Source of the DNA: Escherichia coli
GTDB taxonomy: Bacteria > Pseudomonadota > Gammaproteobacteria > Enterobacterales > Enterobacteriaceae
Strand: one strand, 5' to 3'
Assembly: GCF_041886205.1 (NCBI RefSeq)
Contig: NZ_CP169029.1
Length of the DNA stretch: 64,000 nucleotides
Shown: positions 308-47,370 of the stretch, one piece after another
How the letters are laid out: each line of letters opens with the position of its first letter
Numbering within the stretch: position 1 is the first letter of the stretch
Translations under genes and position numbers: made by a program
Notes under the pieces: model-generated
What the model saw: only the letters and a program-made list of their open reading frames with translations
What the model was told of the DNA's origin: nothing
Database searches by the model: none

Positions 308-2303
<1,996 letters not shown>

Positions 2304-2432
2304 GGCGTTGCCTCATAATCATGTAATGGGATAACAGTTTACGAACCCGTTATGGCTTTATATGTGATCTGAATCTCATTAATTATGCAACGCGTGAAAC
2401 TTACATCAAAAATGCGCGACGCATCGCAAATT

Positions 2433-3559
<1,127 letters not shown>

Positions 3560-3653
3560 TTAATTCGTAAAACGTGCTACCGATCACATTAAGAATTCTC
3601 AGCATAGTTGAATTTTAGGGAAGTAACCTCGGGCGATCGCCCAGTTCAGCACA

Positions 3654-29014: not shown

Positions 29015-31015
29015 TCATCCTTGTTGCTGAAGCATGGGGAATAATTGTTCGCAAAGCAAAACACCGTTATTCATTGCTTCTACCCGAGCCTCGCTTTCTG
29101 TATTACGAAATTGTGCCAATACATGTGCCAGCCGATAAAAACCCATCGCGGTGAGGTCATTCGCCAGCAACTCTGCCTGACCAATAGCACTCTGTTCCTG
29201 ATAGCGCCAGCCGTTATGGAGCAGTTGAATAAGTAACGCCTGGCAGCGCATCAGCAACTGAGGAGCGGTAGACGGCACAGGCAGAACGCTGGCAGAAGGT
29301 AGCGGTGCCACAGGCGTAGTTTCTGCGTCCAGCGCCCAGGCGCGGGTTTTTGTCATCATCACCCGTGGTTCCAGTGTCAATTGCCCCTCAACAAAACTGA
29401 CAAAGCCAGAAACCAGACTCACGGGGTCCTCTGTTTGTTGTAACAGAGCTGCCATGCGTTCAACAGCAAAGGGCGAACAGGTAGAGGCTGGTAGGGATAA
29501 TGTCAGCACGTTATCTTCACCTTCGCCGCTGATTACCTGCGCATCCAGCGTTTGGCGGCTGCTATCCCAACCGAGTGAAATACACTCAGCGACCGGCAGA
29601 ATAAATAAGTTATCGACCTGATTAAGAGGCCGTATGCAGGCGGGGGGACGCTGGCGTAAATATTCCCGCAAAGCCACAATGCCCGGCTGGCGTAACGGCG
29701 CGCTCAACATTTGCCAGGCATCAGGCGACAGCGGCACAACGCTGCTTAAGCGGTTGCGGGTAGCTAACAGCAGCTCGCCATCGGCACTGCGTTTTGCTGC
29801 TTGTGAAACAATTTGCCCGCCCGCTAGTGCGCCAGCCTGAAAACTAAACAGCCGACGCGTAGCTGCCGGTGAGTTTTCCTGTTCACTTCGCGGCCAACTG
29901 CGCGAAAGGTGCAAAATACTGCCGGTGTCGGGATCGGTAAACCAGATGCGTAAACCATAATGCTCAATATCCTGCCAGCAACGCATACCTAAAGACACCA
30001 GCCGCAGATGATCAAGCTTTGCTTCTCCGGCAATGCCAGAGCCAACGACCGTGCGCCACGGCACAGGAGGAACTTCACCAATACTGTCGCGCCGGGCCAT
30101 CTCTTGTGCGCAATTTAATCGACTGTTTAATGCCGCAAGCTGACGTAAGCATTCTCCGGCATGATAGTGGCTGGCGCGGGCGTGGAAGGCATCAACGCTT
30201 GCCCGTAGCTGTCGTAGTGATTCACTCACCCATCGCCAGTTGCAGCGTTCCGCCGCCTGCTGCGCGCGACTAAAAGCGGCCTCGTAGTGAATAAGCGGCT
30301 GGCTGATGCCGCCCAGCCATAATGCCTGGCTTAATTGCTGAACATATTGACGACACGCGTTACCCTCGTCGTTGGCAAACGGATCGTTAGATGATGTGAC
30401 GTGTTCGCTGCGCATCTGCCAGATTAAATGAGTCAATTCCGCTTGCTGCGCTTTTGCCTGGACAAAGGCCTGTACTGCCAGTACGACATGTTCGCAAAGT
30501 GTGCCTTCAATACAATCACAACGGGCGAAACGAATGCTGCTACGGGAATAAAAACGCACATCGCTCATCGGTAAGCGGGCAGAGGGAATTTCGCCCGGCG
30601 TACAGAACAACTCAATGGTGATGCCTTTAGCGACCAGCGCCTGTGCGCGTTTGCGGGTAGCATCGGGAAGGGTAGCCAGTTCTTCCAGCCAGATTGCCGG
30701 ATCCCACTCTTCTTCTTTTTCCGTAGACTGAGTGGTGGCACAAAGTCGTTGATAACTTAACACCAGCATCACGCGATGACGGCACATACCGTTGGCCCCG
30801 CAACTGCACTGAGCCTCTTTCAGTGCCTGGCCGTTCGCCAGCTGGGTACGGACACCGTCACTGAAGGTGGCGATTAAAGCGTCGTTCTCATGGCTGATCT
30901 CCGGGACGTTGCCATTTTCCAGTTCCTTAAGACTGCGCTTAACAAAACCGGCATTGCTTAACGCCGTCAGGGCCTGCGGTGTCAGTTCTAATAATTCCGG
31001 ACGTAGTGAATTCAT
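29015..31015 (-). CDS. yehQ: SWIM zinc-finger protein YehQ (two SWIM motifs)
   Basis: The start MNSLRPELLEL at 31015 makes an ATGA overlap with the yehP stop. Two CxC-x5-CxH motifs: CSCGANGMCRH and CDCIEGTLCEH. Confidence 0.85.
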   Translation of the reverse strand: MNSLRPELLELTPQALTALSNAGFVKRSLKELENGNVPEISHENDALIATFSDGVRTQLANGQALKEAQCSCGANGMCRHRVMLVLSYQRLCATTQSTEKEEEWDPAIWLEELATLPDATRKRAQALVAKGITIELFCTPGEIPSARLPMSDVRFYSRSSIRFARCDCIEGTLCEHVVLAVQAFVQAKAQQAELTHLIWQMRSEHVTSSNDPFANDEGNACRQYVQQLSQALWLGGISQPLIHYEAAFSRAQQAAERCNWRWVSESLRQLRASVDAFHARASHYHAGECLRQLAALNSRLNCAQEMARRDSIGEVPPVPWRTVVGSGIAGEAKLDHLRLVSLGMRCWQDIEHYGLRIWFTDPDTGSILHLSRSWPRSEQENSPAATRRLFSFQAGALAGGQIVSQAAKRSADGELLLATRNRLSSVVPLSPDAWQMLSAPLRQPGIVALREYLRQRPPACIRPLNQVDNLFILPVAECISLGWDSSRQTLDAQVISGEGEDNVLTLSLPASTCSPFAVERMAALLQQTEDPVSLVSGFVSFVEGQLTLEPRVMMTKTRAWALDAETTPVAPLPSASVLPVPSTAPQLLMRCQALLIQLLHNGWRYQEQSAIGQAELLANDLTAMGFYRLAHVLAQFRNTESEARVEAMNNGVLLCEQLFPMLQQQG

Positions 31016-32148
31016 GACTGAAGATTCTCCGCAAGCCATGATGCCAGCTCGCCCGGCGTCATGGCGGCTATTTGTGCGCCGACATTAACCAGCGCCTGGG
31101 CCGTATCGTGGTCATAGCAAGGTGTTGCGTTGCTATCGAGCGCCGCCAGTCCCAGCACTTTGATGCCGCTCTGGACACACTTTTTCACCTGATGCGTGAG
31201 TAATGATGATGAACCCCCTTCGTAAAAATCGCTCACGAGGATAATGACGCTTTTTGCTGGTTGTTCAATAAGTTGCCGACCATATTCCACGGCACTGGCG
31301 ATATTGGTTCCGCCGCCTAATTGCACTTTCATTAATAACTCTACCGGATCGGCAACGTCTGCCGTGAGATCGACGACGCTGGTGTCAAACGCCACCAGAT
31401 GGGTACGAATACCGGGTAACTGCCATAAACAGGCCGCCATCACCGCTGAGTGGATCACCGAGTCCACCATTGATCCGCTTTGATCAACCAGTAAGACCAG
31501 TTGCCATTGTTCACTGTGGCGCTTAATACGGCTGTTAAAGCGGGGGGATTCGATATACAACTTGCCGTGTTGCGGGTGCCAGTGTTGCAGGTTGGCGCGC
31601 AGAGTACTTTTGAAATCAAAGTTTCGCGCCAGTAGAATAAATGAGCGGCGACGGCGATCGCGGACACCAGAAAAAGCCTGACGAACCTCCTTTGCCAGTT
31701 GTGCCATAATTTCTTCCACAACCTGGCGCACTATCCGGCGGGCGGCAGCCAGTACTTCGGGATTCATCAGATGTTTGGTGTGCAAAACGGCGCGTAGCAG
31801 GCTTTCAGAAGGCTGCATACGTTCCAGCACGTCGAGATTCGTCACCACATCTTCAATGCCATAGCGCAGTACGGCATCGCTTTCCAGCCGCTCAATCACC
31901 TGTTGCGGAAACAGCGTGTGAATACTGTTGATCCACTCAGGAGTGGTGAGATTTGAGCCACCTAATCCACCGGAGCGTTCACCACGCTGGAGCCGTTCAG
32001 GATCGCGCCCATACAGCCACTCCAGCGCGTGGTCTATCTGCCGGGCGTTGTCATCCAGCCCACAAAGGGTCGTTTCTGCCGCTTCGCCAAGAATTAATCG
32101 CCAGCGTTGTAGCTCACGGGTGGTCAGAAGATCGTTCAGTTCAGACAT
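31012..32148 (-). CDS. yehP: von Willebrand factor A domain protein YehP
   Basis: Internal start MSELNDLLTTRELQRW gives 378 aa. MIDAS motif DQSGS (LLVDQSGSMVD), plus the later GGGT and SDFYEG elements. 8-nt overlap with the yehM stop. Confidence 0.87.
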   Translation of the reverse strand: MSELNDLLTTRELQRWRLILGEAAETTLCGLDDNARQIDHALEWLYGRDPERLQRGERSGGLGGSNLTTPEWINSIHTLFPQQVIERLESDAVLRYGIEDVVTNLDVLERMQPSESLLRAVLHTKHLMNPEVLAAARRIVRQVVEEIMAQLAKEVRQAFSGVRDRRRRSFILLARNFDFKSTLRANLQHWHPQHGKLYIESPRFNSRIKRHSEQWQLVLLVDQSGSMVDSVIHSAVMAACLWQLPGIRTHLVAFDTSVVDLTADVADPVELLMKVQLGGGTNIASAVEYGRQLIEQPAKSVIILVSDFYEGGSSSLLTHQVKKCVQSGIKVLGLAALDSNATPCYDHDTAQALVNVGAQIAAMTPGELASWLAENLQS

Positions 32149-34420
32149 GGAAAACTCCCCAGTGTTGCAGCGATGCCAGTGCCTGCTGTTCGAGTTGTTG
32201 ATGATGTGCAATGGCTTGCGGTGGACAATGCAACGGTATTTGCAGCGCCGAAACGGGAAGTTGCGCCAGTTGATAATGCTCAAGCACCTGATGCGCCAGC
32301 GTCCCGCGTTCTCGTGGTGGTAGCCAGGCCATCGCCGCGCGTAAATCGGGCAGGGCATTGATAAAATCGGCATCACTCAGTTGATTTAAATGACTGCTGA
32401 AACCGGCGATAAATGCCGGCTGACAAGCCAGTTGATGACGGGCTAATGCCAGCAAACCGTGCAGCGCCTCGCCGGATTGGGCCGGGGATAACTGCGTCAG
32501 CATTGTCAGCGCCGCTTCGGCACTAGCGTTGGGATGTTCCAGACGCATCAGTGCGCCAAGAGTCGCGCCGCGATCCAGCGCCGGGGCATGAATCGCCTGA
32601 CTGCGGCGCTCCAGTAAGGCTACCGCCGCAGAAAGCGAAACGCCGGATAAGTTAACGCCGCTATGTAGATCGCGCAGGATATGGCAAAGCGCTTGCCAGC
32701 TATGCAGGTGAGCGTGAAACTCCTTTTCATCCGGTCTGCCGTTGGATTCACACAGCCACAGCGTGCGATCGATAGCCGCGCATAACGTCGTTTGTAATAT
32801 CTGCGCGCCTTGCATACCGCTAATTTCATCCAGCCGCCATAAGGCATATAGCACTTCCAGCGCCTGGCCCATTTCGGCAAATTGATTTTCCTGGGCGATT
32901 AATAATGTGAGTTGTTCCAGTAATTGCTCACTAAAGCTCGCCAGGCCCGCTAACGCCGCCTGGCTAAGACATGCGGTAATGCTGCCGATTCCACCCGCGT
33001 CCAGCATATCGGCTTCTAATTTATTGCGTGCGGCTTCCTGGAGTGTTGCACCAAAGCAGGCGGCCTCAATCAATGCCGCATGCTGGCTAAGCGGGCGGGT
33101 TAATTTCCAGCGTTCTTCACCGTTGCCTGCAAGTGTCAGTGTACTTCCCTGCTGGCGTAAAATCCCTGGGATCTCCAGTATTGCCAGCCGATGTAACACC
33201 TGACTTTGCGCTAGTCCATTGGGGTTAAAGCGATTTAAGGTAAGCTGCGCCGGAAGAGAGATTCCGGTACGTTCCAGTTCGCAGGTGACATCTTTTGGCA
33301 GAGGCGGTTGTGGCGTGGAGGGGGCAAGTTTACCGAATCCGTCACCCGCTAATGTGTCTATCAACGTTAGCAGAATCGGATCGGTATCGGGATGAATAAC
33401 TCCGCGATAGCTCCACGGCAACGGCGCGTTCAAGGCTTCTTTAATCAGCGAGCCTGCTATGGCATCCAGCCAGTCAGTGCGTAACGGTAGTGTATGACCG
33501 CGCAACTGTGCCAGTGCCATTGCATGCAGATGTGCGGCAGCCATATCAGCGGTAGAAGCGGGCAATTTGTGCTGGCGCAAACGGGTGAGAACCGTTTTTA
33601 GCAGTTGTTCTCCCGCCTGCTGTAAGCCCCACTGCCAGCACCAGTTTTGCCAGACCGGAGCAGGCATTCCGGAAAGGTATCCTGCCAGCACATCAAGGCG
33701 CTTTTCGCTGTATGGCGTGAGATAACAACCTGTAACGGCATCATCCTGTGAGGGCAATTCTGGCTTGTTAATTTCCTGCGGGCATTCGCGCCACATTTTT
33801 GCCAGTGCCGGAGCGTGCCAGCCACCGCAGACGACTAACACGTCGCCATTGTTTTGCAGCATCGCCCATCCAATCCAGCGGGCCATAAAGGCTTCGCGCT
33901 GACGATTGAGAGCATCTCCGGGGGAATCGCCCCGCAGTTGGGCAAAATAGTGCGCCAGCGCAGAGGGTAATGCAGTTTGCTGGCTTTCATCTTCGAATAA
34001 GTGATCCCACAGGGTGTCGCTGTTATCCATGCGGGTGGCACGCAGCAGCAAGGCCTGGCTTTCCTCTTGCGTATCAGGCGAATCGTCCTCTTCTTCACTC
34101 TGCGCCCAGCAAGGCAAATCGATGAAGTAAGTTTGTGCCTGAATACGACGTGCGGCTTGTAGCGCCTGCCACTCCGGCGAAAATTCAGCAAATGGCGTCC
34201 AGGCACCGCGCCCGGGGGCCGTACCGTCCTGATACTGGCAATAACTGTAAATAGCTACCGGAAGCTGGTGGGCTAAAAACAGTTCGTCTACCCGGTCATT
34301 AAAATCAGCCGGGCCTTCAATCAACACGTATCGTGGCCGCTGGCTTTCGATTAACGATTTCACCAGCCGGGCGCTGGCCGGGCTATGATGCCGGATGCCG
34401 ACAATTAACGGCTCGCTCAT
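32141..34420 (-). CDS. yehM: Large uncharacterised protein YehM (759 aa)
   Basis: Internal start MSEPLIVGIRHHSPASARL gives 759 aa and lies 10 nt after the yehL stop. I can see no recognisable catalytic motif. The C-terminal half is mostly helical and Leu/Ala-rich. Confidence 0.85.
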   Translation of the reverse strand: MSEPLIVGIRHHSPASARLVKSLIESQRPRYVLIEGPADFNDRVDELFLAHQLPVAIYSYCQYQDGTAPGRGAWTPFAEFSPEWQALQAARRIQAQTYFIDLPCWAQSEEEDDSPDTQEESQALLLRATRMDNSDTLWDHLFEDESQQTALPSALAHYFAQLRGDSPGDALNRQREAFMARWIGWAMLQNNGDVLVVCGGWHAPALAKMWRECPQEINKPELPSQDDAVTGCYLTPYSEKRLDVLAGYLSGMPAPVWQNWCWQWGLQQAGEQLLKTVLTRLRQHKLPASTADMAAAHLHAMALAQLRGHTLPLRTDWLDAIAGSLIKEALNAPLPWSYRGVIHPDTDPILLTLIDTLAGDGFGKLAPSTPQPPLPKDVTCELERTGISLPAQLTLNRFNPNGLAQSQVLHRLAILEIPGILRQQGSTLTLAGNGEERWKLTRPLSQHAALIEAACFGATLQEAARNKLEADMLDAGGIGSITACLSQAALAGLASFSEQLLEQLTLLIAQENQFAEMGQALEVLYALWRLDEISGMQGAQILQTTLCAAIDRTLWLCESNGRPDEKEFHAHLHSWQALCHILRDLHSGVNLSGVSLSAAVALLERRSQAIHAPALDRGATLGALMRLEHPNASAEAALTMLTQLSPAQSGEALHGLLALARHQLACQPAFIAGFSSHLNQLSDADFINALPDLRAAMAWLPPRERGTLAHQVLEHYQLAQLPVSALQIPLHCPPQAIAHHQQLEQQALASLQHWGVFHV

Positions 34421-34430
34421 GCATCTTTCC

Positions 34431-35519
34431 TCACGGCAGGCGGTGGCGGGCTTGATAATAAGCCTGCCAGTGAGCTTCTTTATGTGTGGCGACTCGCTGT
34501 TCGAAGTAACGGCGCAGACGAGCGCGATCTTCTTCGTTATCTTTGACGATGGTTCCGGCAATACAGTCCACCAGATCGGCTGGCTCACCTGCGCGATTCG
34601 CTAAAAACCAGGCGCGGACGCCCACAGCGTGGGCCACGTTCACGGCTTCAGCGGTGGACATAATCGCTGTTAGTGTATCCATTGACGTTTTCTTTTCGCC
34701 GTTGGCACGCAGATCGCGGAAGGTGCGGACCAGTAACTCCAGTACCGCGTCAGGCACTTTATGCGGAATACCGCTATGGGCCAGCAAACGCGCCGAAGCA
34801 CTGGCGACCAGTTCCAGCTCCTGAGCGAAATCCATAATCGGAAAGACAGTTTCAAAATCGAAGCGACGCTTTAGCGCAGCACTCATCTCATTGACGCCGC
34901 GATCGCGCGTATTGGCAGTGGCAATAATATTAAAGCCTTCCCGCGCATAGAGTTGACTGGCTTCACCAGTGAGTTCCGGCACCGTCATCACCCTGTCAGA
35001 AAGCATACCTAACAGACAGTCTTGCACTTCCAGCGGTGTACGCGTTATCTCTTCAAAACGGACGATTTTGCCGTCGCGCATTCCCTGGTAAAGCGGGGCA
35101 GGGACCAGCGCTTCCGTTGATGGACCATGATTGATAAGCAGAGCGTAGTTCCAGCCGTACTTGATTTGATCTTCAGTGGTAAATGCGCCGCCCTGGATGG
35201 TTAACCCGGCATCGCCGCTAATAGCGGTTGCCAGTAATTCAGACAGGAGAGATTTTGCGGTGCCCGGTTCCCCCACCAACATCAAACCGCGCCCGGTGGC
35301 AAGAGTGACTAACATACGTTCGACAGCAGAGGGACTAATCACGACTTTACGGCTAATATTTTGCGCGCTATCGCCAAGGATAAAAGCACGTGCCGCAGGC
35401 AAACTTAACTGCCAACCGGGCGGGCAAGGTGCGTTATCATTTTGTTTTAATTTTGCCAGTTCATCGGCGTATAACACAGCGGCAGGCGGACGCTGCAGAT
35501 GATTATTCTGCGGTGACAT
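34431..35519 (-). CDS. yehL: MoxR-type (AAA_5-like) AAA+ ATPase YehL
   Basis: Internal start MSPQNNHLQRPP gives 362 aa. Walker A GEPGTAKS, a Walker B-like KIVRFEE, and sensor-1 IIATAN. Confidence 0.88.
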   Translation of the reverse strand: MSPQNNHLQRPPAAVLYADELAKLKQNDNAPCPPGWQLSLPAARAFILGDSAQNISRKVVISPSAVERMLVTLATGRGLMLVGEPGTAKSLLSELLATAISGDAGLTIQGGAFTTEDQIKYGWNYALLINHGPSTEALVPAPLYQGMRDGKIVRFEEITRTPLEVQDCLLGMLSDRVMTVPELTGEASQLYAREGFNIIATANTRDRGVNEMSAALKRRFDFETVFPIMDFAQELELVASASARLLAHSGIPHKVPDAVLELLVRTFRDLRANGEKKTSMDTLTAIMSTAEAVNVAHAVGVRAWFLANRAGEPADLVDCIAGTIVKDNEEDRARLRRYFEQRVATHKEAHWQAYYQARHRLP

Positions 35520-35825: not shown

Positions 35826-36143
35826 TTATTCTATTTCTTGGTTGAATATATTCTGTAGTTCACGATTAAAAATTGCTATTACAGTTTCAGGTGATTCACC
35901 TCGTAATTTCCGCTCATCAATACACTCATCTCTTATATAAATCAACGCATCATTTATTAGCGGGTCAGCATCTTCTCGATCACGTTGATGAAATGTTGGA
36001 TGTAGCCGGAATCGCTCCAGTCGATAGACGGAACCTGTAAATAATTCAGAGCATTTATGGATCTCAAGTCTGAAGGAAAACGGATCTTCAGGTACAGGGA
36101 CCTCATAATCGTAAATAGCAACCAGCTCTTTTTGCACGATCAT
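35826..36143 (-). CDS. yehK: Small uncharacterised protein YehK (105 aa)
   Basis: 105-aa ORF, visibly AT-rich compared with its neighbours. No signal peptide or TM segment. Acidic. Confidence 0.75.
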   Translation of the reverse strand: MIVQKELVAIYDYEVPVPEDPFSFRLEIHKCSELFTGSVYRLERFRLHPTFHQRDREDADPLINDALIYIRDECIDERKLRGESPETVIAIFNRELQNIFNQEIE

Positions 36144-36202: not shown

Positions 36203-39200
36203 TTAATGGAAAATGACGTCGGGTGCGCTTAACGCCTCACTCAAATCAAACACATCAAGTGCGGCAAAAGTGACGGATTTATTGTCACGGTACACCCGAA
36301 GAGAACGGAAGCTCATCAGCGCTTTGCTATCAGCACTGTAGTAGTTAAAACCGGGTGAAAACTTAAGGACCAGCCGGTACTCACCTAAGTCATAGACAAA
36401 TGCGTCCTCATAGCCTGACTCCCAGCCTTTGTATCGCATTCCCATAAGCTGCCCAACGGTAGCGGATTTACCTTCCCAGCGAGTCAGGCTGTTACTGGTT
36501 GACTCGTCAGGTGTGAGCAGCACCGTGCGGCGCGACAACTGGCGAAAAGGCGGCATAATTTCGTAATCGGCAAAAAGCTGTGCAAATTCACTGCGCATTT
36601 CTGCTGTCATTTCTAACGGGTGGGCAATGCCAATCAGAGCGTCCGCAGGCAGGTCAATGGGCTCATCTTGTGCATTGCAGAATTCCCCCTCTGCGGCCAC
36701 ACGAAAGGTGTTGAGTAAACGACGTGGTTCATTTGCCGGATAAACCCCCCATATTAATCGCTGGGTAACCAGGCGGGTAAAGGGATGATTAACAAAAAGA
36801 GAATGAAAATCTGCCAGCGACCAGCGTCGGGTGGTGCGTAGGGCAGTTTCAAGACGCGGGAGCAGGTTTTTGCTCACCTGAGTGGCATCTTTTTTTAGCC
36901 CTTTTAGTCGGGCCAGTGCCTCGGGCGCTTTCAGTTGATCGTCATCGGCGCGCAACCGGGGAACACTTTTCTGGCGAACGTTTTGTTGATCGTAGATAAC
37001 CGGGTTGAGGTTTTCATCGAAGCGAACGGTAAACTGCCGGGGACCAAAATCAAAAATCAACGCCTGCGGATCATCAAGACCCAGTGTTGGGACTAATCTG
37101 TCCGCTAACTCTTCCTGGCTTAGCCCGCGATTTTCTGCGACCACCTGAAGAAATTCCGCTGCGTTTTCACGTAATGAAGAGGATTTCGCCCGTTGTGATA
37201 CATGATGCAGCTGTATCAGCGCCATATCATTATTCATCAGGGTGAGTATATTCAGACCACTGACAGCACGGGCAGATTTGCCTTCTTGTGGCCAAGCGAG
37301 GATCTGTGTTGTTAGATCCCGTGCCGTGCTTTCGTCACCAAAGAGACTTAACGCCAGAAATGCCCAGTTGTCTTTTGCGGGGGCACCAGCTTGTTGCCAT
37401 GCGGTGAAGAGATCCCAGGCAAAAGCTGCCAGCGTTTGCGGCTGGCAGAACGTTTTCAGTTGTTCCAGCCCGCTATAAAAACGTCCCCCTTGGGTAAAGC
37501 GCAGCATTTCGCCAATAATTTCCAGAGCGTCATCGGTAACAGGTTGATTATTAGTGATAAGGCGCGGCCTGGACCACATTTGCGGATGCCAGAAATCAGG
37601 GGCTTTTGGAATGCGTGCCGGGTAAATCTCTATTGGACTCTGTTTAAGTAATTGTTCCAGGGCAGGCCATACATCAGCGCGATCCCAGCGGTTTGCCACG
37701 GTTTGTAGTAATACGCCATGTCCCTGTTCGTAAAGTAAACGCAGGGCAAGTAATGCAGCTTCGCTATTATCGCTGGATTTAGTGAAGACAAGAGGGATAA
37801 GTGCAGTAGCCGTATGTTCCGGCCATTGTAAAATCCACTGGCGAGCCAGATCACGCTGCGCCGCGAAACGTCGCCAGACGCGGGCAACAGGCAGCGCCAG
37901 TTCTGTTGCGCCGAAATGAATCAGCAGCGGAAATATCTCTTGTGGATGTCGGGCAAAGGCGGTGTTTAATCCAGGCAAAGCATCGGTAGCCAGCACACTT
38001 AACAGATATTCCACCCCAGTGTAATGAAAATCAGCATCGACAATTTGTTGCCAGCACGATACCGCCATTTCGCGCGGCATCTGCGCGATAAGGTACAGAT
38101 TCCAAATCCCCCAACGCTTTTCATTACCATAGTAAAATTCGTGCTGAAAAGTTCGCCACCCTTCCATCAACGCAATGCAATCTTGTGCCAGTAATGCTTT
38201 GGTGGCTTCTTCACGATACTGTTTAGATTTGGCCTGATGCGCGTGATAAGTACGCAATAGTCCTATTGATGTGTATTCTTGCAGTTGCTGAGCATCAAAG
38301 GCATCCAACTGTCCATTAAGAAGATGCTTATTAAATTCCAGGCTATGAACGTCAAAACCTAATTCCCGCAAGAAGGTATCCGCCCCTCTCTTAGCAATAC
38401 GTTCGTCAAAAGACATGGCGCTAAAATGGTCAATTGCAGTTTGCTGTTCCGGCGTCCAGTGTTTATTCGGCGACCTGTACGTTTGCGGTGCAAGCGTAAG
38501 ATCAGGCAGCGAAAAGTGAGGTATGGAAGTCTTTTTCTTCCTCCCACGCCATGGTGGTGAAACGAGGATTTCAGGCATTTGGCTGTTATCGGTACTATCA
38601 ATAACCGGTTTGGGCGGTGCCAATAAATAACTATTCAGTACTGCCCGGGCTTGAGTACTTAACCACTGCATCACCTCTTCTGCCAGTTGTGGCTGCGATG
38701 CCATCAGCGTTTGTAACAGCGTACGCCAGTATTCATCTCGAGCTTTTTGCTGGGCAGGCAGCTTTTTGTCTTCGATGATTGGATAACCAGGGCGGGCTGG
38801 TGGTTCTTTTAACGCCAACAGTTCTGCCAGTGCCGCGAGCGTCGCGTGGGGGAAGTTTTTACTGTATTTAGCCACACGTTGCAGGCTGGGTTTGTTTTTA
38901 TCAGCCACCAGTAGCAAGGTGCGGATGACCTGCGGATGGTTAATTTGTACCAACAGACTGCCGCAATCTTCTTTATGGGCATACATCGCGAGGCGCGGAA
39001 TGGCTGCCAGTCCTTGTTCGCGCAAAAGGGCGGCGCAGGCCGCGTAGCCGAAGTGGTTTTCATGCGACATGTAGCTGGCTTCGCGATCGCTAAATATATC
39101 CTGACTCCAGTAGTGATCGAGTTTCCTCACCGCTGTGGGGTCATTAGCAACAACTTTTAGCCACTCCTTAGAATGATAATGAGTCCGTGGGCATTCAAGG

Positions 39201-39850
39201 CCTATCAACTCATTGGCGATTTCTGGTTTTTCCGGGAGGATCAGCGCAATAAAAGGGCGGCGAACTTTGGTTATTCCTGGCAGTGCGGCAATGAGTTTGT
39301 CGGCGCAACGCTGCCAGCAGCTTTCCTCTGCCAGAGAGAGATGCTTACGCAGTCGGAGATCGAATTCGTTATAGGTTTCTGATCGATAACCATAGCCATA
39401 GTCCTCGTTCTGATACTGCAATGTCACTACCAGAGGATCACTCTCATAACACCGCGCAATAAACTGGCGTGCAATCACCACCTCAGTCGCATATTCCAGT
39501 CCCTCTTGTTGGACGATTTCGTCGAGCAACTGTTGGCTGTCATTTTGCGCGATACAGGCTAGTGCCGCCATTGTGCGGGCCGGGACTGAGGGTTTGTGTT
39601 CGCCGATCAAGTTGATGGCCTGCGTAATGGCGGACTGCCACTCCAGTGAAAAATTTTCATAACGCCAGACAATGTTTTTTTTCTTCTCAGCTTTTTGTAG
39701 CAATTCATCACCCAGTGTCTGAATGATGCTTTCAGTGATAACAGGCACCGGTTCGCCCGGCCATTTGCGATGACTGAGTGGTGTTTTGCCTTTTTTATAT
39801 TTCAGTTCCAGTTGGGCGTTATCCGCCAGCCACGGTAATTCCTTGTCCAT
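36203..39850 (-). CDS. yehI: MolR/YehI-family giant protein YehI (1215 aa); lacks the N-terminal WGR-like module
   Basis: Uninterrupted 1215-aa ORF. It aligns to the upstream paralogue from about residue 97 (LPWLADNAQ vs LPWLADGAQ) through the C-terminus. The start is 9 nt after the upstream stop, and that spacer contains aggaaagag (SD). Confidence 0.88.
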   Translation of the reverse strand: MDKELPWLADNAQLELKYKKGKTPLSHRKWPGEPVPVITESIIQTLGDELLQKAEKKKNIVWRYENFSLEWQSAITQAINLIGEHKPSVPARTMAALACIAQNDSQQLLDEIVQQEGLEYATEVVIARQFIARCYESDPLVVTLQYQNEDYGYGYRSETYNEFDLRLRKHLSLAEESCWQRCADKLIAALPGITKVRRPFIALILPEKPEIANELIGLECPRTHYHSKEWLKVVANDPTAVRKLDHYWSQDIFSDREASYMSHENHFGYAACAALLREQGLAAIPRLAMYAHKEDCGSLLVQINHPQVIRTLLLVADKNKPSLQRVAKYSKNFPHATLAALAELLALKEPPARPGYPIIEDKKLPAQQKARDEYWRTLLQTLMASQPQLAEEVMQWLSTQARAVLNSYLLAPPKPVIDSTDNSQMPEILVSPPWRGRKKKTSIPHFSLPDLTLAPQTYRSPNKHWTPEQQTAIDHFSAMSFDERIAKRGADTFLRELGFDVHSLEFNKHLLNGQLDAFDAQQLQEYTSIGLLRTYHAHQAKSKQYREEATKALLAQDCIALMEGWRTFQHEFYYGNEKRWGIWNLYLIAQMPREMAVSCWQQIVDADFHYTGVEYLLSVLATDALPGLNTAFARHPQEIFPLLIHFGATELALPVARVWRRFAAQRDLARQWILQWPEHTATALIPLVFTKSSDNSEAALLALRLLYEQGHGVLLQTVANRWDRADVWPALEQLLKQSPIEIYPARIPKAPDFWHPQMWSRPRLITNNQPVTDDALEIIGEMLRFTQGGRFYSGLEQLKTFCQPQTLAAFAWDLFTAWQQAGAPAKDNWAFLALSLFGDESTARDLTTQILAWPQEGKSARAVSGLNILTLMNNDMALIQLHHVSQRAKSSSLRENAAEFLQVVAENRGLSQEELADRLVPTLGLDDPQALIFDFGPRQFTVRFDENLNPVIYDQQNVRQKSVPRLRADDDQLKAPEALARLKGLKKDATQVSKNLLPRLETALRTTRRWSLADFHSLFVNHPFTRLVTQRLIWGVYPANEPRRLLNTFRVAAEGEFCNAQDEPIDLPADALIGIAHPLEMTAEMRSEFAQLFADYEIMPPFRQLSRRTVLLTPDESTSNSLTRWEGKSATVGQLMGMRYKGWESGYEDAFVYDLGEYRLVLKFSPGFNYYSADSKALMSFRSLRVYRDNKSVTFAALDVFDLSEALSAPDVIFH

Positions 39851-39859
39851 GCTCTTTCC

Positions 39860-42800
39860 TTATTCAAACAGGGCTTCAATATCGTTAATTAGCTCGCTGG
39901 CGGTGATGGCATCGAGTACGGAGAACTGCGCTTCCTGTGTTGAATTACTCCCCCAGCCATAGCTTTCCGCTTTGCCTTCCCATAACCACAGCTTGCTTAA
40001 GAGCTGCTCAGCGCTAAGTTCGGCTGGTGACATACCCACCGCAAAACCTTCGTCGATTTCCATGATTAACGACCAGCGACCCAAAGGTTTGATCATCCAT
40101 CCGATCCAGCCTCCATCCTGTGGTTCGCCCTTTATCCAGCCTTTATTCGCCAGCCCCATGACCCGACCACTCGGGCATTTTCTGCCTGCCCAGCGGGTCA
40201 GTTCACTGGCATTGCGCTCGGCTTCTGTCAGGGCGTAGCTGTTACGGTCGAGCTGGCGGAACGGTGGTAGCAGTTCGTAGTCGGCAAAAAGCTGACCAAA
40301 GGCGGCAGCATCCGTTGGTGATATTTCCAGAACGTGAGGAGTGCCGATAGAGATATCGCCTTCCGGCAGGGTGAAAAGATCATCGTCAGCGGTGCTGTAG
40401 CTGTTATCTTCTGCTACGCGAAAGCAAGCCAGTAGCTGGTTTTCGGCGCTATAAACGCCCCAAATCAGACGGCGGGTTAAGTGACGAACCAGCGGATGCT
40501 CAACCAGGAAGAGCTGGAAGTTTTCCAGCGACCAGCGGCGGCGCAGGCACATGGCGGATTCCAGCCTTGCTACCTGCTGGGCGGCGACGGTACGCGCATC
40601 TTTTTTCAGCAGTTTGTAGCGGTTAACAGCATCGTTCGCCTGTGATTCATCATCGCTTTTGTTTGGTTTGGGCAGGTCTTTCAGACGGCTGCCGGAAGCG
40701 TCACGCACAAACGGTTTTAAGGTTTCATCAAAGCTGACGGTGAACTGGCGTGGGCCGAAATCCAGCAGCAACGAACCGTTATCATCCAGACCGAGATCTG
40801 GTGCTAACCGATCTTCAAGCTCCGCCACCGTGAGTTCGCGGCTCTCGGCAATATCGGCAATTTTCTCTTTTGCCCGCTCCTGTAAAGCTTTGAATTTCAG
40901 TTTCTGAGCAATGCCGTTAAGCTGCATCAGAGCAATATCACTACCGATAGCGGCGAGGATATCAAGCCCGACGGTGGCGCGTTTATGCTGGGATTCGCCA
41001 GGCCAGGCGCGGATTAATGGCGTCAGTTTGCGGGCGGTGTCATCGTTACCGAGAACGCCTAACGCAGTGAACGCCCAACTCTCTTTCGACGGCGCGCCAG
41101 CGGTCTGCCAGGCGGTAAACAGATCCCAGGCAAATTCAGCCAGTGAGTCGGCGGTACAGGCGTCTTTCACCTGTAATATTCCCGGATACAGAACCTCTTC
41201 CTGAGGGAAGCGGAGCATTTCACCGAGGTGGAGGAGGGCTCTATCTGGCAGTGATTGGGCGTTTGCTTTTAATACCGGGCGCGTCCAGAGCGATGGTTGA
41301 TAAAAGGCCGGAAGAGTGGGGATTTTTGTCGGGTGATTATCTAAGGGATCGAGCGCAAGCAGAGCGTTCACCGCATCGGTTACTTCCGGCTGGTTATAAC
41401 GTCGGGCGATTTCTTGCAGTAATGGCTGATGACCGTTTTCGGTAAGCATACGCAAGGCAGCGCGGGCGTTATCCTGTGCTTCACCGGCTTTGCCGAGCGC
41501 CGCAGGCAGCAGGCCGGTAAGGGCATGTTCCGGGTATTTCAACAGCCAGCTACGGGCGTTTTCGCGTAGCGTTTTGAGTTTGTTGAAGGCACGGGCAATC
41601 AGTGGCGCTAATTCGATAGCCGCAAAATATTGTGCTACAGGCAGCGCTTCTTGCGGATAGCGAGATGCTGAGTGGATAAAACCTGTTAAACCAGCAAGTC
41701 GAAGATGCAACATTACTTGTGTTGCACCTGTATGTGGTTCTTTACTAAGGATGTTCCACATCTCGATAGCTTTATTAATGGGTAAAACATGGAGTGAAGA
41801 AAGATTCCATTCGCCCTGATAAGGGGAGTTATAGGACTTAAAAGCATCAATCAGCGCTGAATAATCTTCACGCTGCAAGGCATCCAGTGCTATTTCTGGA
41901 ACATCAATATAGCCTCTATGTTTGTTCCAATCCCAGCGGTTGAATCCCAGGGAGGTCAGAAAAGCTTTTTCTCCCTCAGCTTGCTGATGAGGTTGCCAGT
42001 TATGCTGCACTTGCAGTGTTTTGCTTTTTGTTTCATTTATTGTACAGAAGGATTCTAGGGATAATGGTGCTAAATCCAGCACCGAAATCGTCGATTTTTT
42101 CTTTTTAGCCAGCCAGGGCGGTGAGACTAATACGGCAGGCAGCATATCAGCGTTCGCATAAACTGAAGGTTGTGTCAGTTGTTGCTGGCATGACTTAAGA
42201 ACGGTAACTGCCGGGGCAGATAGCCAGGAGATTACCCGTTCTGCTAATGTTGGTTGTGAGATAAGCATTGTCATTAGCATCATGCGCCAGCGCTTTTCAT
42301 CTTTTTTTGCCAGAAGTTCTGCTAATGCCGCCAGCGCTGCATGTGGAAAGCGAACGAAAGCCTTTGTCATGCGATCGTGGCAACGCTTTCCCTGCTCGCT
42401 TGCATGGATAAGTAGTGTAAGTGCCTGCGGGTGGTTGATATGCATCAACACTTCACCACATGTGTCACCAGCAGCGTAAGGAGCAAAACGGGCCAGCGCA
42501 GCGACACCTTGCTCCTTGAGTATCGTTGCGCACCAGATTTTACCTCCGTAATAATCATCAAATACCTGCCCAGGCTGTCCTGGATAGTATTTTCCCAGTT
42601 CTGCCAATACCTGCTCGTCAGCGGCCGTCAGTTTTAGCCATTCCAGCGCATATAACCCTTTTTGTCCGCAAAGATGTCTGGCAATCTCATGAGCTATTTC
42701 TGGTTTTTCCGGCAACAATAGTGCAACCAGCGGCTGGTGCCAGGTGGGCATGTTTCCGAGAGCGGCAATCAGTTTGTCGGCGCAGCGCTGCCATACATCG

Positions 42801-43618
42801 TCATTTGCAAGTGAGAGATGCTTACGCAGGCGCATTTCAACCGAAGCGAAGCGTAACAGATAGCCAGGCTGCCTGTTATCCGGGGTAACCGTAATGAGAT
42901 GGGCATCATAATCCCAGTCGAAGCGGATGAATTGCAATGCAATGACAACCTCAGTGGCATATTCCAGACCACCTTCCTGGACAATTTGATCCATTAACTC
43001 TTCATGATCGTTACGATTGAAGCCTTGTTCCAGCGCAACCAGTACCGCCAGTACCATCGGAGGTAGCGTGGTGCTAATTGGCGAGTCGATAAGGCCTACT
43101 GCTTGTGTAATTGCCTGCTGCCAGTCGAGTGAACAGGTACTGTAATCGAAGGTGAGCACCTTTTTAAAACGCCGGTGAGTATTCGCGGCAACGGTGCGTA
43201 GCAGGGTTAATTCATCCTCCTGCTGCACCGGATCGCCAGGCCAGCGTCGATGACTGAGTGTGGTTGGCGCAATCTCTGTCGGTAACATGATTTGGGCACC
43301 GTCTGCCAGCCAGGGGAGGAGGTCACCAGCAAATGCTGGTTTGTCTTGTGGCAAAGGGGTAATTTCAGGGCATTCAATAACCTGGCCGGGTGCAAATGTC
43401 GCTGTCATCACGGATACTTCTTCTACGTAGCCCTTTTTTGTTTTCTCCGCAATCAGCTTCAGCTCCGCTTTTTCCGCCGCCGCAGCATCTGCAAAGCTTT
43501 TTACCTGACTTTGCCCGTTACTGCCGACTTTACCCCAGTTAATATGCAGCTCGTTTCCCTGCTGCTCCACCGCCCAGAATTTATGTGATTTTTCGTCCTG
43601 ATAAATATAGGTTTTCAT
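39860..43618 (-). CDS. Intact MolR-family protein (1252 aa): N-terminal WGR-like domain plus a long helical/DUF4132-type body
   Basis: Uninterrupted ORF. The N-terminus MKTYIYQDEKSHKFWAVEQQGNELHINWGKVGSNGQSQVKSF fits the WGR-domain pattern (FW..., WG+xG..GQ). The C-terminal roughly 500 aa are about 75-80% identical to the neighbouring split paralogue. Confidence 0.85.
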   Translation of the reverse strand: MKTYIYQDEKSHKFWAVEQQGNELHINWGKVGSNGQSQVKSFADAAAAEKAELKLIAEKTKKGYVEEVSVMTATFAPGQVIECPEITPLPQDKPAFAGDLLPWLADGAQIMLPTEIAPTTLSHRRWPGDPVQQEDELTLLRTVAANTHRRFKKVLTFDYSTCSLDWQQAITQAVGLIDSPISTTLPPMVLAVLVALEQGFNRNDHEELMDQIVQEGGLEYATEVVIALQFIRFDWDYDAHLITVTPDNRQPGYLLRFASVEMRLRKHLSLANDDVWQRCADKLIAALGNMPTWHQPLVALLLPEKPEIAHEIARHLCGQKGLYALEWLKLTAADEQVLAELGKYYPGQPGQVFDDYYGGKIWCATILKEQGVAALARFAPYAAGDTCGEVLMHINHPQALTLLIHASEQGKRCHDRMTKAFVRFPHAALAALAELLAKKDEKRWRMMLMTMLISQPTLAERVISWLSAPAVTVLKSCQQQLTQPSVYANADMLPAVLVSPPWLAKKKKSTISVLDLAPLSLESFCTINETKSKTLQVQHNWQPHQQAEGEKAFLTSLGFNRWDWNKHRGYIDVPEIALDALQREDYSALIDAFKSYNSPYQGEWNLSSLHVLPINKAIEMWNILSKEPHTGATQVMLHLRLAGLTGFIHSASRYPQEALPVAQYFAAIELAPLIARAFNKLKTLRENARSWLLKYPEHALTGLLPAALGKAGEAQDNARAALRMLTENGHQPLLQEIARRYNQPEVTDAVNALLALDPLDNHPTKIPTLPAFYQPSLWTRPVLKANAQSLPDRALLHLGEMLRFPQEEVLYPGILQVKDACTADSLAEFAWDLFTAWQTAGAPSKESWAFTALGVLGNDDTARKLTPLIRAWPGESQHKRATVGLDILAAIGSDIALMQLNGIAQKLKFKALQERAKEKIADIAESRELTVAELEDRLAPDLGLDDNGSLLLDFGPRQFTVSFDETLKPFVRDASGSRLKDLPKPNKSDDESQANDAVNRYKLLKKDARTVAAQQVARLESAMCLRRRWSLENFQLFLVEHPLVRHLTRRLIWGVYSAENQLLACFRVAEDNSYSTADDDLFTLPEGDISIGTPHVLEISPTDAAAFGQLFADYELLPPFRQLDRNSYALTEAERNASELTRWAGRKCPSGRVMGLANKGWIKGEPQDGGWIGWMIKPLGRWSLIMEIDEGFAVGMSPAELSAEQLLSKLWLWEGKAESYGWGSNSTQEAQFSVLDAITASELINDIEALFE

Positions 43619-43630
43619 TGCTAAATCCTT

Positions 43631-45820
43631 TTAATCAAACAGTGATTCAATATCGTTAATCAGCTCGCTGGCGGTGATGTCGTCGAGCACGGAGAAGGGA
43701 TAAACCGATTTGCGCGGCGTCAGTTTGCACAACTGAATGTGCTCAATTTTTTGGCTATCGCTGATTTCGGTGACGGGCAATCCAACGCAGAAGCCTGGTG
43801 TCACACTCAGTTCGACGTAGCCATCATCCACAGATTTATAAAATGAGTAATAGCCGCCACCATCCAGCACATCGCCCCGTTGCCAGCCTTTATTCATCAG
43901 CCCGGCGACGCGCCCACTCGCTGCCTGGCGACCAGCCCAGCGCTGCAAATCGCTGCTGCTTTTTTCTGTCTCAGAGAGCTGAGACCAGGGGCGATCAAGT
44001 TGACTGAATGGTGGCAATAGTTCGTAGTCAGAGAACAGTTGTGCAAATTCAGCAGCCTGCGGGGCCGGGATTTCCAGTACATGCGGGATACCGATACTGC
44101 CCTGCGCAAGGGTTAACGGGTTATCCTGACCGTCGCTAAAACTGCCATCCTCCGCCACGCGGAAACAGGAAATAAGCTGATTATCAGCGTCATAAATGCC
44201 CCACATCAGACGTTGGGTGATATGACGAACCAGGGGATGCTCAACCAGAAACAGGCGGAACTGTTCTGCAGTCCAGCGGCGACGCTGACACATGGCGGCT
44301 TCCAGACGCGAAATCTGTTGTGCAGCTACCGTGCGGACATCTTTTTTCAACAACTTGTAGCGATTTACCGCTTCCTCAGCCAGCGTTTCATCATCGCTTT
44401 TGTTCGGTTTGGGCAGATCTTTCAGACGGTTGCCGGAAGCTTCGCGCACAAACGGTTTTAAGGATTCATCAAAGCTGACGGTGAACAGGCGTGGGCCGAA
44501 ATCCAGCAGTAGTGAGCCGTTATCATCCAGACCGAGATCGGGGGCTAACCGGTCTTCCATCTCTGCGACGGTGAGCTGGCGGCTTTCGGCAATCTGGGCG
44601 ATTTTAGTTCTAGCCTGATCCTGCAAGGCTTTAAATTTTAGCTTTTGCGCAATACCGTTAAGTTGCATCAGGGCGATATCGCTGCCGATAGCAGCAAGAA
44701 TATCCAGCCCGACAGTGGCGCGTTTATGCTGAGATTCCCCCGGCCATGCGCGGATGAGCGGGGTGAGTTTGCGGGCGGTGTCATCGTTACCCAGAATCCC
44801 CAGTGCGGTAAATGCCCAGTTATCTTTGGCTGACCCGCTTGCAATCTCCCAGCTCAAGAAGAGATCCCAGGCGAAATCGGCAAGAGACTGCGGGGTACAG
44901 GCCTCGATTACCTGTGTTATCCCCGGGTAAAGGGTGGCTTCGCGGGGAAAAGAGAGCATGGTGCACAGTTGCAGGATAGCTGAATCCGGAAGTGCCTTGC
45001 CGTTACTGCGCAGAAGCGGGCGGTGCCATACTTCAGGGGTACACCAGGCGGGGAGTTTAGCGATTTTCTGCGGAAAATTATCGAGGGGGTCGCTGTTAAG
45101 AACATCTAACAAACCCGTAAGCACTTCTGCCTGATTATAGCGGTGGGCAATTTCTTCCATTAACGGCTGATGCCCATGATGAGCCAGATAGCGAATTGCC
45201 GTAGCGGCGTCTTCACGCTCACTACCTGCTTTTCCCAGCACGGAAGGCAGCAGGCCCGTAATGGCATGTTCCGGATAGGTTAACAACCAACGTTCAGCAA
45301 CATCACGTACAGATTTAAGCTGACGAAAGGCGCGAGCCATTAAGGGGGCTACTTCGGTTGCGCCAAAACGTGCCGCTAAAGGAATGGCTTCCTGAGGTAC
45401 GACTAAGGCGCGACGCAGCAAGCCGGGCAATGTCGGAAGACCGTAATATTCCACTACTTCACATGCGTTAATCAGATGTAGGTGAGTCAGTGCGTTCCAT
45501 ATTTTCAGTGCTTTATTTTCTGATAACTGAAGCAATACCGACACATTGACAAGGATATGACTTGCCCACCGAGGTTTATCCCAGATCTTTAATAAAGCTT
45601 CGTAATTGTCCTGCTCGAAAAAATCAATGGCAGCCTGAGGTATACCCCAACCAAGCTCTTCGCAATGGAAGTTCAACAAATCCAGGATATCTTTCGCTGA
45701 TGGGGATGGCGCAGATGGCTCAGTCAGATTTTTTGTTGCGGGGATAGATTCAGGGGGGGAAGAGGTAATACCCGGAGAGTGAGGTTGATACCAGCAATCT
45801 TTTTCTTTTTTTCCAACCAT
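43631..45820 (-). pseudogene. C-terminal portion (729-codon ORF) of a third MolR-family gene, split by a frameshift
   Basis: Homologous to residues of about 530-1252 of the intact paralogue. Overlaps the N-terminal ORF by 97 nt in another frame. Adding one C to the C7 run at 45753-45759 fuses both ORFs into 1246 codons. Confidence 0.75.
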
Positions 45821-47370
45821 GAAGGGGCGATCAATATACTGGGTAATTCATTCTTATGAGCAATTTTTTCGATGGACATAAGCTGAGGAAAATAACTAAA
45901 TAAAATTTGTTGCTGTTTTTCGTCAAGCCAGGGAAGCGTTTTATGTAAGGCTTGCGCATTACCCAAGATGATGCGCTGCAGTAAACGATAATAGTGAGAG
46001 TTATTTGTGTAATTTAAGGCTTTTGTTAATGCATAAAGTGCAGCTTCAGGATGTAAATTTGTTGCGTGTTCCACTTCACTGATACATTCTTCTTTTATTA
46101 ATATATTAATGGCGTCAGGATGATTAACTTGTGTAATTAGATTTTTAACTGAATAACTATCCTTTATCCATGGCTGAAGAAGTGGAAGAGCTTTTACCCC
46201 TCGTTCACGCAGTAATGTCGCAGTGCATTTTTCCGCCGTCTGCCAGTCGTTATAGCGCTTAAGTTGGTTAAGATTCATCAATTCATTGAGTGCCTGCGGA
46301 TCTGTGGCAACGATATCCAACCATTCCATTTCTGGGTAATTAGCACATTGCACTAAGTCAAAGACAATTTGATTAGCAATTTCAGGTTGTTCAGGCAAAA
46401 GAAAACCTATTAAAGGGCGTTTACGTGGAGACAGGGAAGGCAACGCTTGAGTAAGCTTTTTCATGCACCGTTGCCATGTTTTTTCATCAATACGCGAGAG
46501 ATGATTTCGCAAGTGAAAATCTACAGTGCTGAAGCCGAATTCAAAACGTTGTTCTGATATTGTGTTACTTAGAATAAGCGTTGGTACGCAATTTTTTGTA
46601 AAAAAATTGTATCCCATGCGAACATACAAAAGGCATTTATCTAAAGCTTCACAATTTCCCGGATCTTGATTTTGATCATCTGATATCTGAATTTGCTGTA
46701 ATAGCAAGACTAATTCGGTCGCGTATTCTACCCCATGCTGTTGCGCCAGATAATCAAAAAGATCATTAGCGCTATCGCTATCTTGCATAAGAAACTTGAC
46801 CAGCAAAAAGAATGCATTGGAGAAAATCGAACCGTCTATATTTTTCTGCTGAACGCGCATGATTGCTTCATCCCGGCCTCGTTGCCATTCCGGGCGGCAG
46901 TCACTCACATCAAAATGCTGTAATTGTGCAAGAAAATAGTATTCCTCATATTTGTTTTCCCATAAGAGTGACCATAACGAGATATCTTTAGCAAACGTCC
47001 TGACACTGTCGGCTGGGAATTTCCTACTGCTAAATACTCTCTTTGTTTCGAGAATGATTGGTTCAAGGTCCGCAATCCACGGTGGTGTGTCGACATCAGT
47101 AATAATTGGATGTTGTTCGCTATCATCAGCTGTGGTGGGAACAGTTATCAGCATGTTTATATCGTCAGTCGATTTTACATACCCCTTCTTCACCTTCTCC
47201 GCAATCAACTTCAGCTCCGCTTTTTCCGCCGTTGCAGCATCCGCAAAACTTTTTACCTGGCTTTGCCCTTGGGTGCCAACTTTTCCCCAACTGATATGCA
47301 ACTCGTTTCCCTGTTGCTCCACCGCCCAGAATTTATGTGATTTTTCGTCCTGATAGATAAAGCGTCTCAT
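45724..47370 (-). pseudogene. N-terminal portion (548-codon ORF) of the split MolR-family gene: WGR-like domain plus an AT-rich divergent region
   Basis: N-terminus MRRFIYQDEKSHKFWAVEQQGNELHISWGKVGTQGQSQVKSF. It ends just after PSWLEKKKKIAGINLTL, which is homologous to PPWLAKKKKSTISVLDL in the intact copy. Confidence 0.75.

Follow-up and report, generated by a model that had tools for sequence, protein, structure and literature searches.

A peptide identical between two deeply diverged WGR-DUF4132 paralogues of the Escherichia coli yeh locus and evidence for purifying selection on it

We analyzed a stretch of 64,000 nucleotides of Escherichia coli DNA (contig NZ_CP169029.1 of assembly GCF_041886205.1), hereafter the window. 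The window contains the metG-yeh locus of E. coli and is nearly identical to strain 2017.06.05CC (NZ_AP027790.1). The minus-strand order is metG, copy C, copy B, yehI, yehK, yehL, yehM, yehP and yehQ, and the three large genes (C, B and yehI) are separated by gaps of only 12 and 9 nt. The neighbours at the locus are metG, apbC, the yeh fimbrial genes and yehK. The features are the following:

29015..35519, minus strand: yehL (MoxR-type AAA_5 ATPase), yehM (DUF5682), yehP (CoxE-like vWA) and yehQ (SWIM), assigned with Pfam; single-copy, downstream and in the same orientation
35826..36143, minus strand: yehK, a small annotated gene of 105 aa between yehI and yehL
36203..39850, minus strand: yehI, the type-2 paralogue, 1215 aa, WGR-less, with a diverged block (Pfam: DUF4132 only)
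37169..37321, minus strand: YehI counterpart of the 51 codons (RDLTTQILAWPQEGKSARAV...), 22/51 residues identical to B
39860..43618, minus strand: copy B, type-1 WGR + DUF4132 gene, 1252 aa (Pfam WGR at aa 7-67, DUF4132 at aa 976-1161)
40136..40693, minus strand: Pfam DUF4132 of B (aa 976-1161), with the block 63 residues upstream and outside the model
40880..41032, minus strand: 51-codon block in the intact copy B (aa 863-913), from translation and codon comparison
40880..41053, minus strand: full 58-residue run in B (aa 856-913), identical in copy C
43631..47370, minus strand: copy C, the second type-1 WGR + DUF4132 gene, split here and intact (1246 aa) in NZ_AP027790.1
44621..44794, minus strand: the 58 residues in copy C (aa 860-917, numbered on the intact protein), identical in copy B

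The DUF4132 model (PF13569) was matched by B, C and YehI with scores of 175, 164 and 161 bits, respectively (gathering cutoff of 27). The WGR model (PF05406) was matched at aa 7-68 of B and C with about 64 bits (cutoff of 22) and presented no match in YehI. YehL matched AAA_5 (1.2e-34), with bpMoxR reaching only 9.4e-4, below its cutoff, and YehP matched VWA_CoxE over its full length (8.3e-71). The paralogues fall into two types. Type-1 proteins mostly bear WGR and carry the canonical form of the block (...WPGE..H.RA...KFK.LQ). Type-2 proteins lack WGR and resemble YehI, and their block is diverged (...WPQEGKSARA...KAKS[KR]PL[QR]), and their genes are usually the last of the array, beside yehL.

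E. coli K-12 contains one such gene, broken into yehF and the yehH pseudogene (formerly molR) and followed by yehI. The 3' half of copy B is the orthologue of K-12 yehH/molR (94.7% nucleotide identity over nt 1906-3759), but in its 5' part identity to K-12 yehH drops to about 70%. The split of copy C is due to one missing C close to position 45750, beside a run of seven G; the copy is otherwise identical to the gene of NZ_AP027790.1. The molR promoter is activated by BglJ-RcsB (PMC3950696), and the region is disrupted by a blaCTX-M-15 transposon in a successful ST131 sublineage (PMC9334617). The locus is dispensable, since it carries a pseudogene in K-12 and is transposon-disrupted in this ST131 sublineage. 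No functional study was found in the literature on DUF4132, yehLMPQ, molR/yehH/yehI/DUF5682 or the combination of WGR, MoxR and vWA.

The same 51-residue peptide is translated from positions 40880-41032 (copy B) and 44621-44773 (copy C), both on the minus strand. The identity between B and C reaches seven residues further upstream (LGNDDTA...): the initial annotation was right that a 51-codon block is protein-identical, but the identical run is 58 residues long. The next longest identical runs between the two proteins are of 23 and 22 residues. Comparing the two 153-nt segments codon by codon, we observed 27 nucleotide differences (17.6%) in 26 codons. Third positions account for 26 of them, and the remaining one lies at the first base of a leucine codon (TTA/CTC); none changes an amino acid. 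A count of 28 differences had been reported, all synonymous and all either at third positions or in the leucine swap. The number has to be corrected to 27, but the synonymy and the placement of the differences were both recovered. The longest nucleotide-identical stretch inside the 51-codon block is 17 nt. YehI, which had been described as more divergent in this region, is indeed so.

We further compared B and C with a sliding Nei-Gojobori analysis. Divergence is extreme over aa ~50-750 (pN of 0.4-0.7), and a conserved zone extends over aa ~820-1060. The block presents a pS of 0.70, corresponding to 26 silent differences over 37.2 synonymous sites of 153 (Jukes-Cantor dS of about 2), and, across its 115.8 non-synonymous sites, zero true replacements. 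The method counts 1.0 "non-synonymous" difference in the block, which is a path-averaging artefact at the TTA/CTC codon. For comparison, the rest of aa 821-1060 presents a pS of 0.52 and a pN of 0.137, and the pS of the block is on par with the most diverged parts of the gene (0.70-0.77). When synonymous codons were drawn at random according to the usage of these genes, 28-31 ± 3.2 differing codons were expected, relative to 26 observed. Silent sites of the block are near saturation, which excludes recent gene conversion as well as constraint at the DNA or RNA level. The earlier argument against recent gene conversion is thus upheld by the higher pS of the block relative to the remaining conserved zone and by the number of differing codons.

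The absence of replacements was evaluated in several ways. If the 27 changes were placed at random, the probability that all would be silent is about 0.243^27, roughly 3e-17. Assuming a uniform rate in the best-conserved region, an identical run of at least 58 residues has a probability of 3e-4 to 1e-3. With a site-rate model, whose per-site rates were estimated from 41 outgroup homologues, 8-12 changes were expected in the block and none was seen (P = 9e-5 to 2e-7 depending on the calibration). The block is the most extreme of all 58-residue windows of aa 640-1252 (expected 11.0, observed 0; P = 7.6e-7), in a test that assumes a single divergence time along the gene, while the gene is a recombination mosaic and saturation masks differences in age. 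Twenty positions that are variable in the 41 outgroup homologues are identical between B and C: L856, N858, D860, T861, K864, T866, L868, I869, A871, S876, Q877, K879, V883, A889, A890, S893, Q899, Q905, L907 and A911. K-12 yehH and dozens of Escherichia/Shigella protein clusters carry the same peptide as well, and at the nucleotide level four further alleles present 12-27 silent differences among them.

These results indicate that the identical peptide is almost certainly kept by purifying selection on the protein. The intense purifying selection proposed by the initial annotation is thereby confirmed, with no real replacement across the non-synonymous sites. Neither of the observations named in advance as contrary evidence was made: the block is not unexceptional within the C-terminal region, and the recount uncovered no non-synonymous difference. 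Selection had been claimed for both copies. Because copy C is one base short of an otherwise identical intact gene, its split is either very recent or a sequencing error and the signal of selection is historical. Conserved proteins often contain peptides that are kept while their silent sites saturate, and such a finding is unsurprising alone; the signal in B and C is real but fairly ordinary for a conserved protein segment.

The tandem paralogues B and C are old and have diverged deeply, with a highly variable N-terminal two-thirds and a constant C-terminal module. The head of B was found with at least 90% identity in about 746 E. coli genomes and only as a partial match of 60-80% in about 2,991. 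The variable region of copy C was found in only 8 of 5,426 E. coli genomes. The block occurs in 5,334 of the 5,426 complete E. coli genomes. Next to the block, a patch of low dS (B aa 941-985) presents 8.1% nucleotide difference, where the block presents 17.6% and the flanks about 26%. Silent divergence below that of the flanks, as expected from gene conversion, was therefore found in this neighbouring patch and not in the block. The locus is a recombination mosaic throughout which the peptide of the block is unchanged. We also observed a yehH/yehI chimera (P0052) whose junction falls inside the block (...IRAWP|QEG...); it is known from one short-read assembly only and could be an artefact.

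We then extended the comparison to the family. The C-terminal 613 residues of B yielded 926 relatives at E ≤ 1e-5 among 8,000 candidates scored, including proteins of Burkholderiales, Xanthomonadales, Myxococcota and mycobacteria with 50-60% identity. A 121-residue module around the block was found in 1,489 cluster representatives (E ≤ 1e-10), always about 300-430 residues from the C-terminus. Across 49 non-redundant homologues, the 51-aa block ranked 2nd of 563 in identity to B and 3rd of 563 for low entropy. Across 104 type-1 copies (5,274 codon-level pairs), it ranked 18th of 563 in pN, with the minimum at aa 894-944 and a plateau over about aa 856-980. The block had been called a functional core of the family. 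It does belong to the most conserved zone (aa ~856-980), but its rank in pN indicates that it is not unique there, and its excess of conservation is limited to Escherichia/Klebsiella.

Of 76 loci of other species, 22 contain at least two full copies, and the largest number, six, was found in Massilia. From Klebsiella to Massilia, Variovorax and Serratia, the genes keep the order [type 1]n-[type 2]-(yehK)-yehL-M-P-Q. Homologues of YehL and YehM are encoded within 10 kb of DUF4132 genes in 61 of the 76 other-species loci, and yehLMPQ homologues as a whole, in the same order and within the same distance, in 55-61 of them; yehK was found only in Escherichia/Shigella loci (3/76). Some homologues with a conserved block, for example that of Sandaracinus (P0106), present no yehLMPQ within 10 kb.

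When all copies were pooled, the block did not stand out in paralogue pairs of other genera. Type-1 and type-2 copies were therefore separated, which gave a lineage-specific result. In within-genome type-1 pairs of Massilia, Duganella, Deefgea and others, the number of changes in the block equals the number expected from the site-rate model, which shows that this model is well calibrated. In contrast, Escherichia/Klebsiella type-1 pairs presented 4, 7 and 1 changes where 11.4, 15.7 and 6.6 were expected, respectively (P = 0.001-0.005). The total identity of B and C is an enterobacterial excess and not a general property of the family.

We modelled B aa 640-1252 with AlphaFold2 from a 47-sequence alignment (mean pLDDT of 91.4). 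Within the run, helices were predicted at aa 859-871, 875-891 and 894-906, followed by the start of a helix at 910-926, forming helix-turn-helix hairpins. In the model, these last hairpins of a solenoid, which contain the block, are followed by a beta-meander, a long helix and the alpha/beta DUF4132 domain. Foldseek returned only alpha-solenoid matches, all weak (E of 8.5e-3 or worse). Many invariant residues of the block are small or hydrophobic and follow a HEAT-type pattern (A..GL..L..IG.D.AL..L). The WPGESQH loop, invariant or nearly so, was modelled with a pLDDT of 79 (model residues 231-240). Pfam searches of B aa 780-940 returned no family match at E ≤ 10, even to HEAT. The PDB searched by sequence yielded only spurious weak matches to ribosomal protein S33/eS28, and NCBIfam nothing beyond a match, below threshold, between the WGR end and a Leptospira family. 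From the model, the block likely represents a HEAT-like helical-repeat element at the junction of the solenoid and DUF4132. The initial annotation had envisaged an interaction surface or an active site; nothing in the predicted HEAT-like hairpins, which carry no catalytic signature, supports the latter.

Taken as a whole, the best explanation of the block, and one that we hold to be on balance probable, is that it represents the constant docking module of paralogues with varying heads. About two and a half HEAT-like hairpins (B aa 856-913) would end the alpha-solenoid directly before the beta-meander and DUF4132, and this segment would offer a putative protein-protein docking surface common to all type-1 paralogues. 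The putative partner, or partners, would be single-copy and encoded in the operon, among YehI, YehK, the MoxR ATPase YehL, YehM, the vWA protein YehP and the SWIM protein YehQ. We propose that no copy could drift because all copies in a genome would have to fit one partner. Such a shared partner would explain both why positions that vary in the family are frozen in Escherichia/Klebsiella and why variable heads stand alongside a frozen tail. Docking of the block onto a shared partner, as suggested by conservation and gene order, is possible rather than probable. Several observations are in its favor: the conserved order of the arrays with single-copy yehL-M-P-Q, the lineage-specific freezing, and the combination of a constant tail with a variable head. 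Other observations go against it. Part of the conservation of the block is structural, much of the invariant pattern being a requirement of the HEAT-type fold, and Sandaracinus P0106 and other homologues keep the block with no yehLMPQ set within 10 kb. Moreover, each Massilia array has a single yehLMPQ set, and still its blocks change as fast as expected, which weakens the simple rule that a shared partner freezes the block. The dispensability of the locus in K-12 and in the ST131 sublineage also speaks against this explanation.

The main rival to docking is a purely intramolecular constraint, in which the block would be the packing core of the last repeats against DUF4132 with no outside partner. 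The small and hydrophobic residues at the invariant positions fit such a core, the segment was modelled with high confidence beside the beta-meander and the DUF4132 domain, and some homologues keep the block without yehLMPQ nearby. A family-wide requirement of the fold, however, does not predict that 20 positions variable in the outgroups are frozen between B and C, nor that the deficit of changes is specific to one lineage, and the pLDDT of the conserved WPGESQH loop seems to fit an exposed loop better than a packed core. We consider this explanation somewhat unlikely.

The remaining rivals concern the nucleotide sequence and are far less probable. The chimera P0052 indicates that recombination within the block can occur, and, with a peptide that has to stay identical, silent differences might then be favored so that tandem copies avoid recombination and deletion. 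This appears very unlikely: the 26 differing codons are not above the 28-31 of neutral saturation, leaving no signal beyond drift, and the chimera itself, known from one short-read assembly, may be artefactual. Selection for additional silent divergence was rejected as unsupported. Less probable still is concerted evolution, by which gene conversion between the tandem copies would keep the block identical. Conversion would leave a tract with hardly any silent differences, whereas pS is higher in the block than in the flanking conserved zone and no stretch of identical nucleotides in the 51-codon block exceeds 17 nt. Finally, two plus-strand ORFs (40659-40907 and 40911-41204) overlap the region, and an overlapping feature (antisense ORF, RNA structure or regulatory site) might constrain the segment at the nucleotide level. 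Either a second frame or an RNA structure would be expected to hold back change at third positions, which are nearly saturated here. The probability of this explanation is negligible, and an antisense ORF or RNA constraint was rejected on these grounds.

The putative docking module can be compared with several known systems. For its predicted helical hairpins, the closest comparison is with HEAT/ARM alpha-solenoids (for example deoxyhypusine hydroxylase, Integrator subunit 4, symplekin and the artificial alphaRep proteins), but the Yeh block has no Pfam match, and conservation is far higher in these few repeats than in the remaining solenoid. Another comparison is provided by CoxD-CoxE, which activates metal-cluster insertion (PMC7159879): YehP is a CoxE-like vWA protein and YehL an AAA_5 MoxR-type ATPase. 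No gene for CO-dehydrogenase or another client metalloenzyme was found near the yeh locus, and, unlike CoxD-CoxE, the yeh operon has a DUF5682 protein, a SWIM protein and arrays of variable WGR-DUF4132 proteins. The MoxR-vWA ternary conflict systems are described by Kaur, Burroughs, Iyer and Aravind (2020, PMC7159879), who propose that the MoxR-vWA pair was recruited from CoxD-CoxE to serve as a regulatory switch. WGR, SWIM and Yeh proteins are not mentioned in that study (PMC7159879). The yeh locus resembles these systems in that yehL and yehP encode a MoxR-type AAA+ ATPase and a vWA protein together, along with a large, diversifying and repeat-containing third component. It differs from them in being part of the core genome of E. 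coli and not an island. No VMAP, iSTAND, beta-propeller or effector domain was found in the Yeh proteins, for which Pfam returned only DUF5682, SWIM, WGR and DUF4132 beside the domains of YehL and YehP, and PADLOC returned no model match for the seven Yeh proteins.

The HsdS subunits of type I restriction-modification systems combine variable recognition parts with conserved segments that dock onto invariant partner subunits. By analogy, the Yeh proteins may be similar in their constant and variable regions and in the deep allelic classes present within one species. The two are not related in sequence or fold, and docking of the Yeh block is inferred.

The block marks where selection is strongest, outside the annotated domains, and offers a precise target for interaction mapping and mutagenesis. 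Its module is present in more than a thousand protein clusters, and its value is that it draws attention to a module of a large uncharacterised family that is functionally important and lacks annotation. The variable heads, constant tail, tandem arrays and conserved linkage to MoxR-vWA also suggest an organisation of the system that can be tested. The yeh locus might represent an undescribed, widespread modular sensing or conflict system with interchangeable WGR-solenoid heads, one frozen docking module that includes the block, and a single MoxR ATPase-DUF5682-vWA-SWIM machine. This idea is speculative and we think it unlikely; behind it are the heads of E. coli, which fall into deep allelic classes, and the six tandem copies of Massilia.

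A short distance downstream of the 51-codon block that is protein-identical in B, the intact WGR + DUF4132 gene, and C, its split paralogue, we detected a patch of low silent divergence, located on the minus strand of both genes:

40664-40798 (-), B aa 941-985, patch in B
44405-44539 (-), corresponding patch in C

The silent-site difference (pS) between B and C is unusually low in this patch (0.07-0.3), with a nucleotide difference of 8.1%. Despite this low silent divergence, the two copies differ by four amino acids. The signature of the patch is opposite to that of the block. On these comparisons, the patch looks like a short gene-conversion tract. Within the otherwise constant C-terminal tail, B aa 1162-1219 (window 39962-40135) is a fast-evolving stretch: B and C present 43 changes in this segment, well above the 27.4 expected from the site rates of the family (P = 9e-7).

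The variable N-terminal and middle parts (heads) and the WGR-coding 5' ends of the two genes lie at these positions:

41900-43400 (-), head of B
45900-47100 (-), head of C
43424-43618 (-), WGR-coding 5' end of B
47177-47370 (-), WGR-coding 5' end of C

The heads of E. coli fall into deep allelic classes. The head of B was found with at least 90% identity in ~746 E. coli genomes and only as a partial match (60-80%) in ~2,991, and the head of C was found in only 8 of 5,426 genomes. The first 194 nt of K-12 yehF present 92.8% identity to C and only 83% to B, and the 3' half of the K-12 gene is B-like. Judged from these identities, the WGR-coding 5' ends of B and C are mosaic.

The split of copy C is due to a single absent C at window position ~45750 (plus strand, GATT[C]CAGGGGGGG). 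At every other base, this copy matches the intact gene of NZ_AP027790.1, which encodes 1246 aa. Either copy C became a pseudogene very recently, or the absent base is a sequencing error next to a homopolymer.

A Logan assembly also contained a clean yehH/yehI chimera (P0052, 903 aa), which is ~95% B-like up to ...IRAWP and ~95% YehI-like from QEGKSARA... onward, which places the junction within the block. Either a deletion truly fused the tandem paralogues, or the chimera is an artefact of the assembly.

Finally, the small gene yehK (window 35826-36143) presented no match in Pfam or PADLOC and was confined to Escherichia/Shigella among the 76 sampled loci. The gaps between the three large paralogues are just 9 nt (window 39851-39859) and 12 nt (43619-43630), which suggests that these genes are co-transcribed and possibly translationally coupled.
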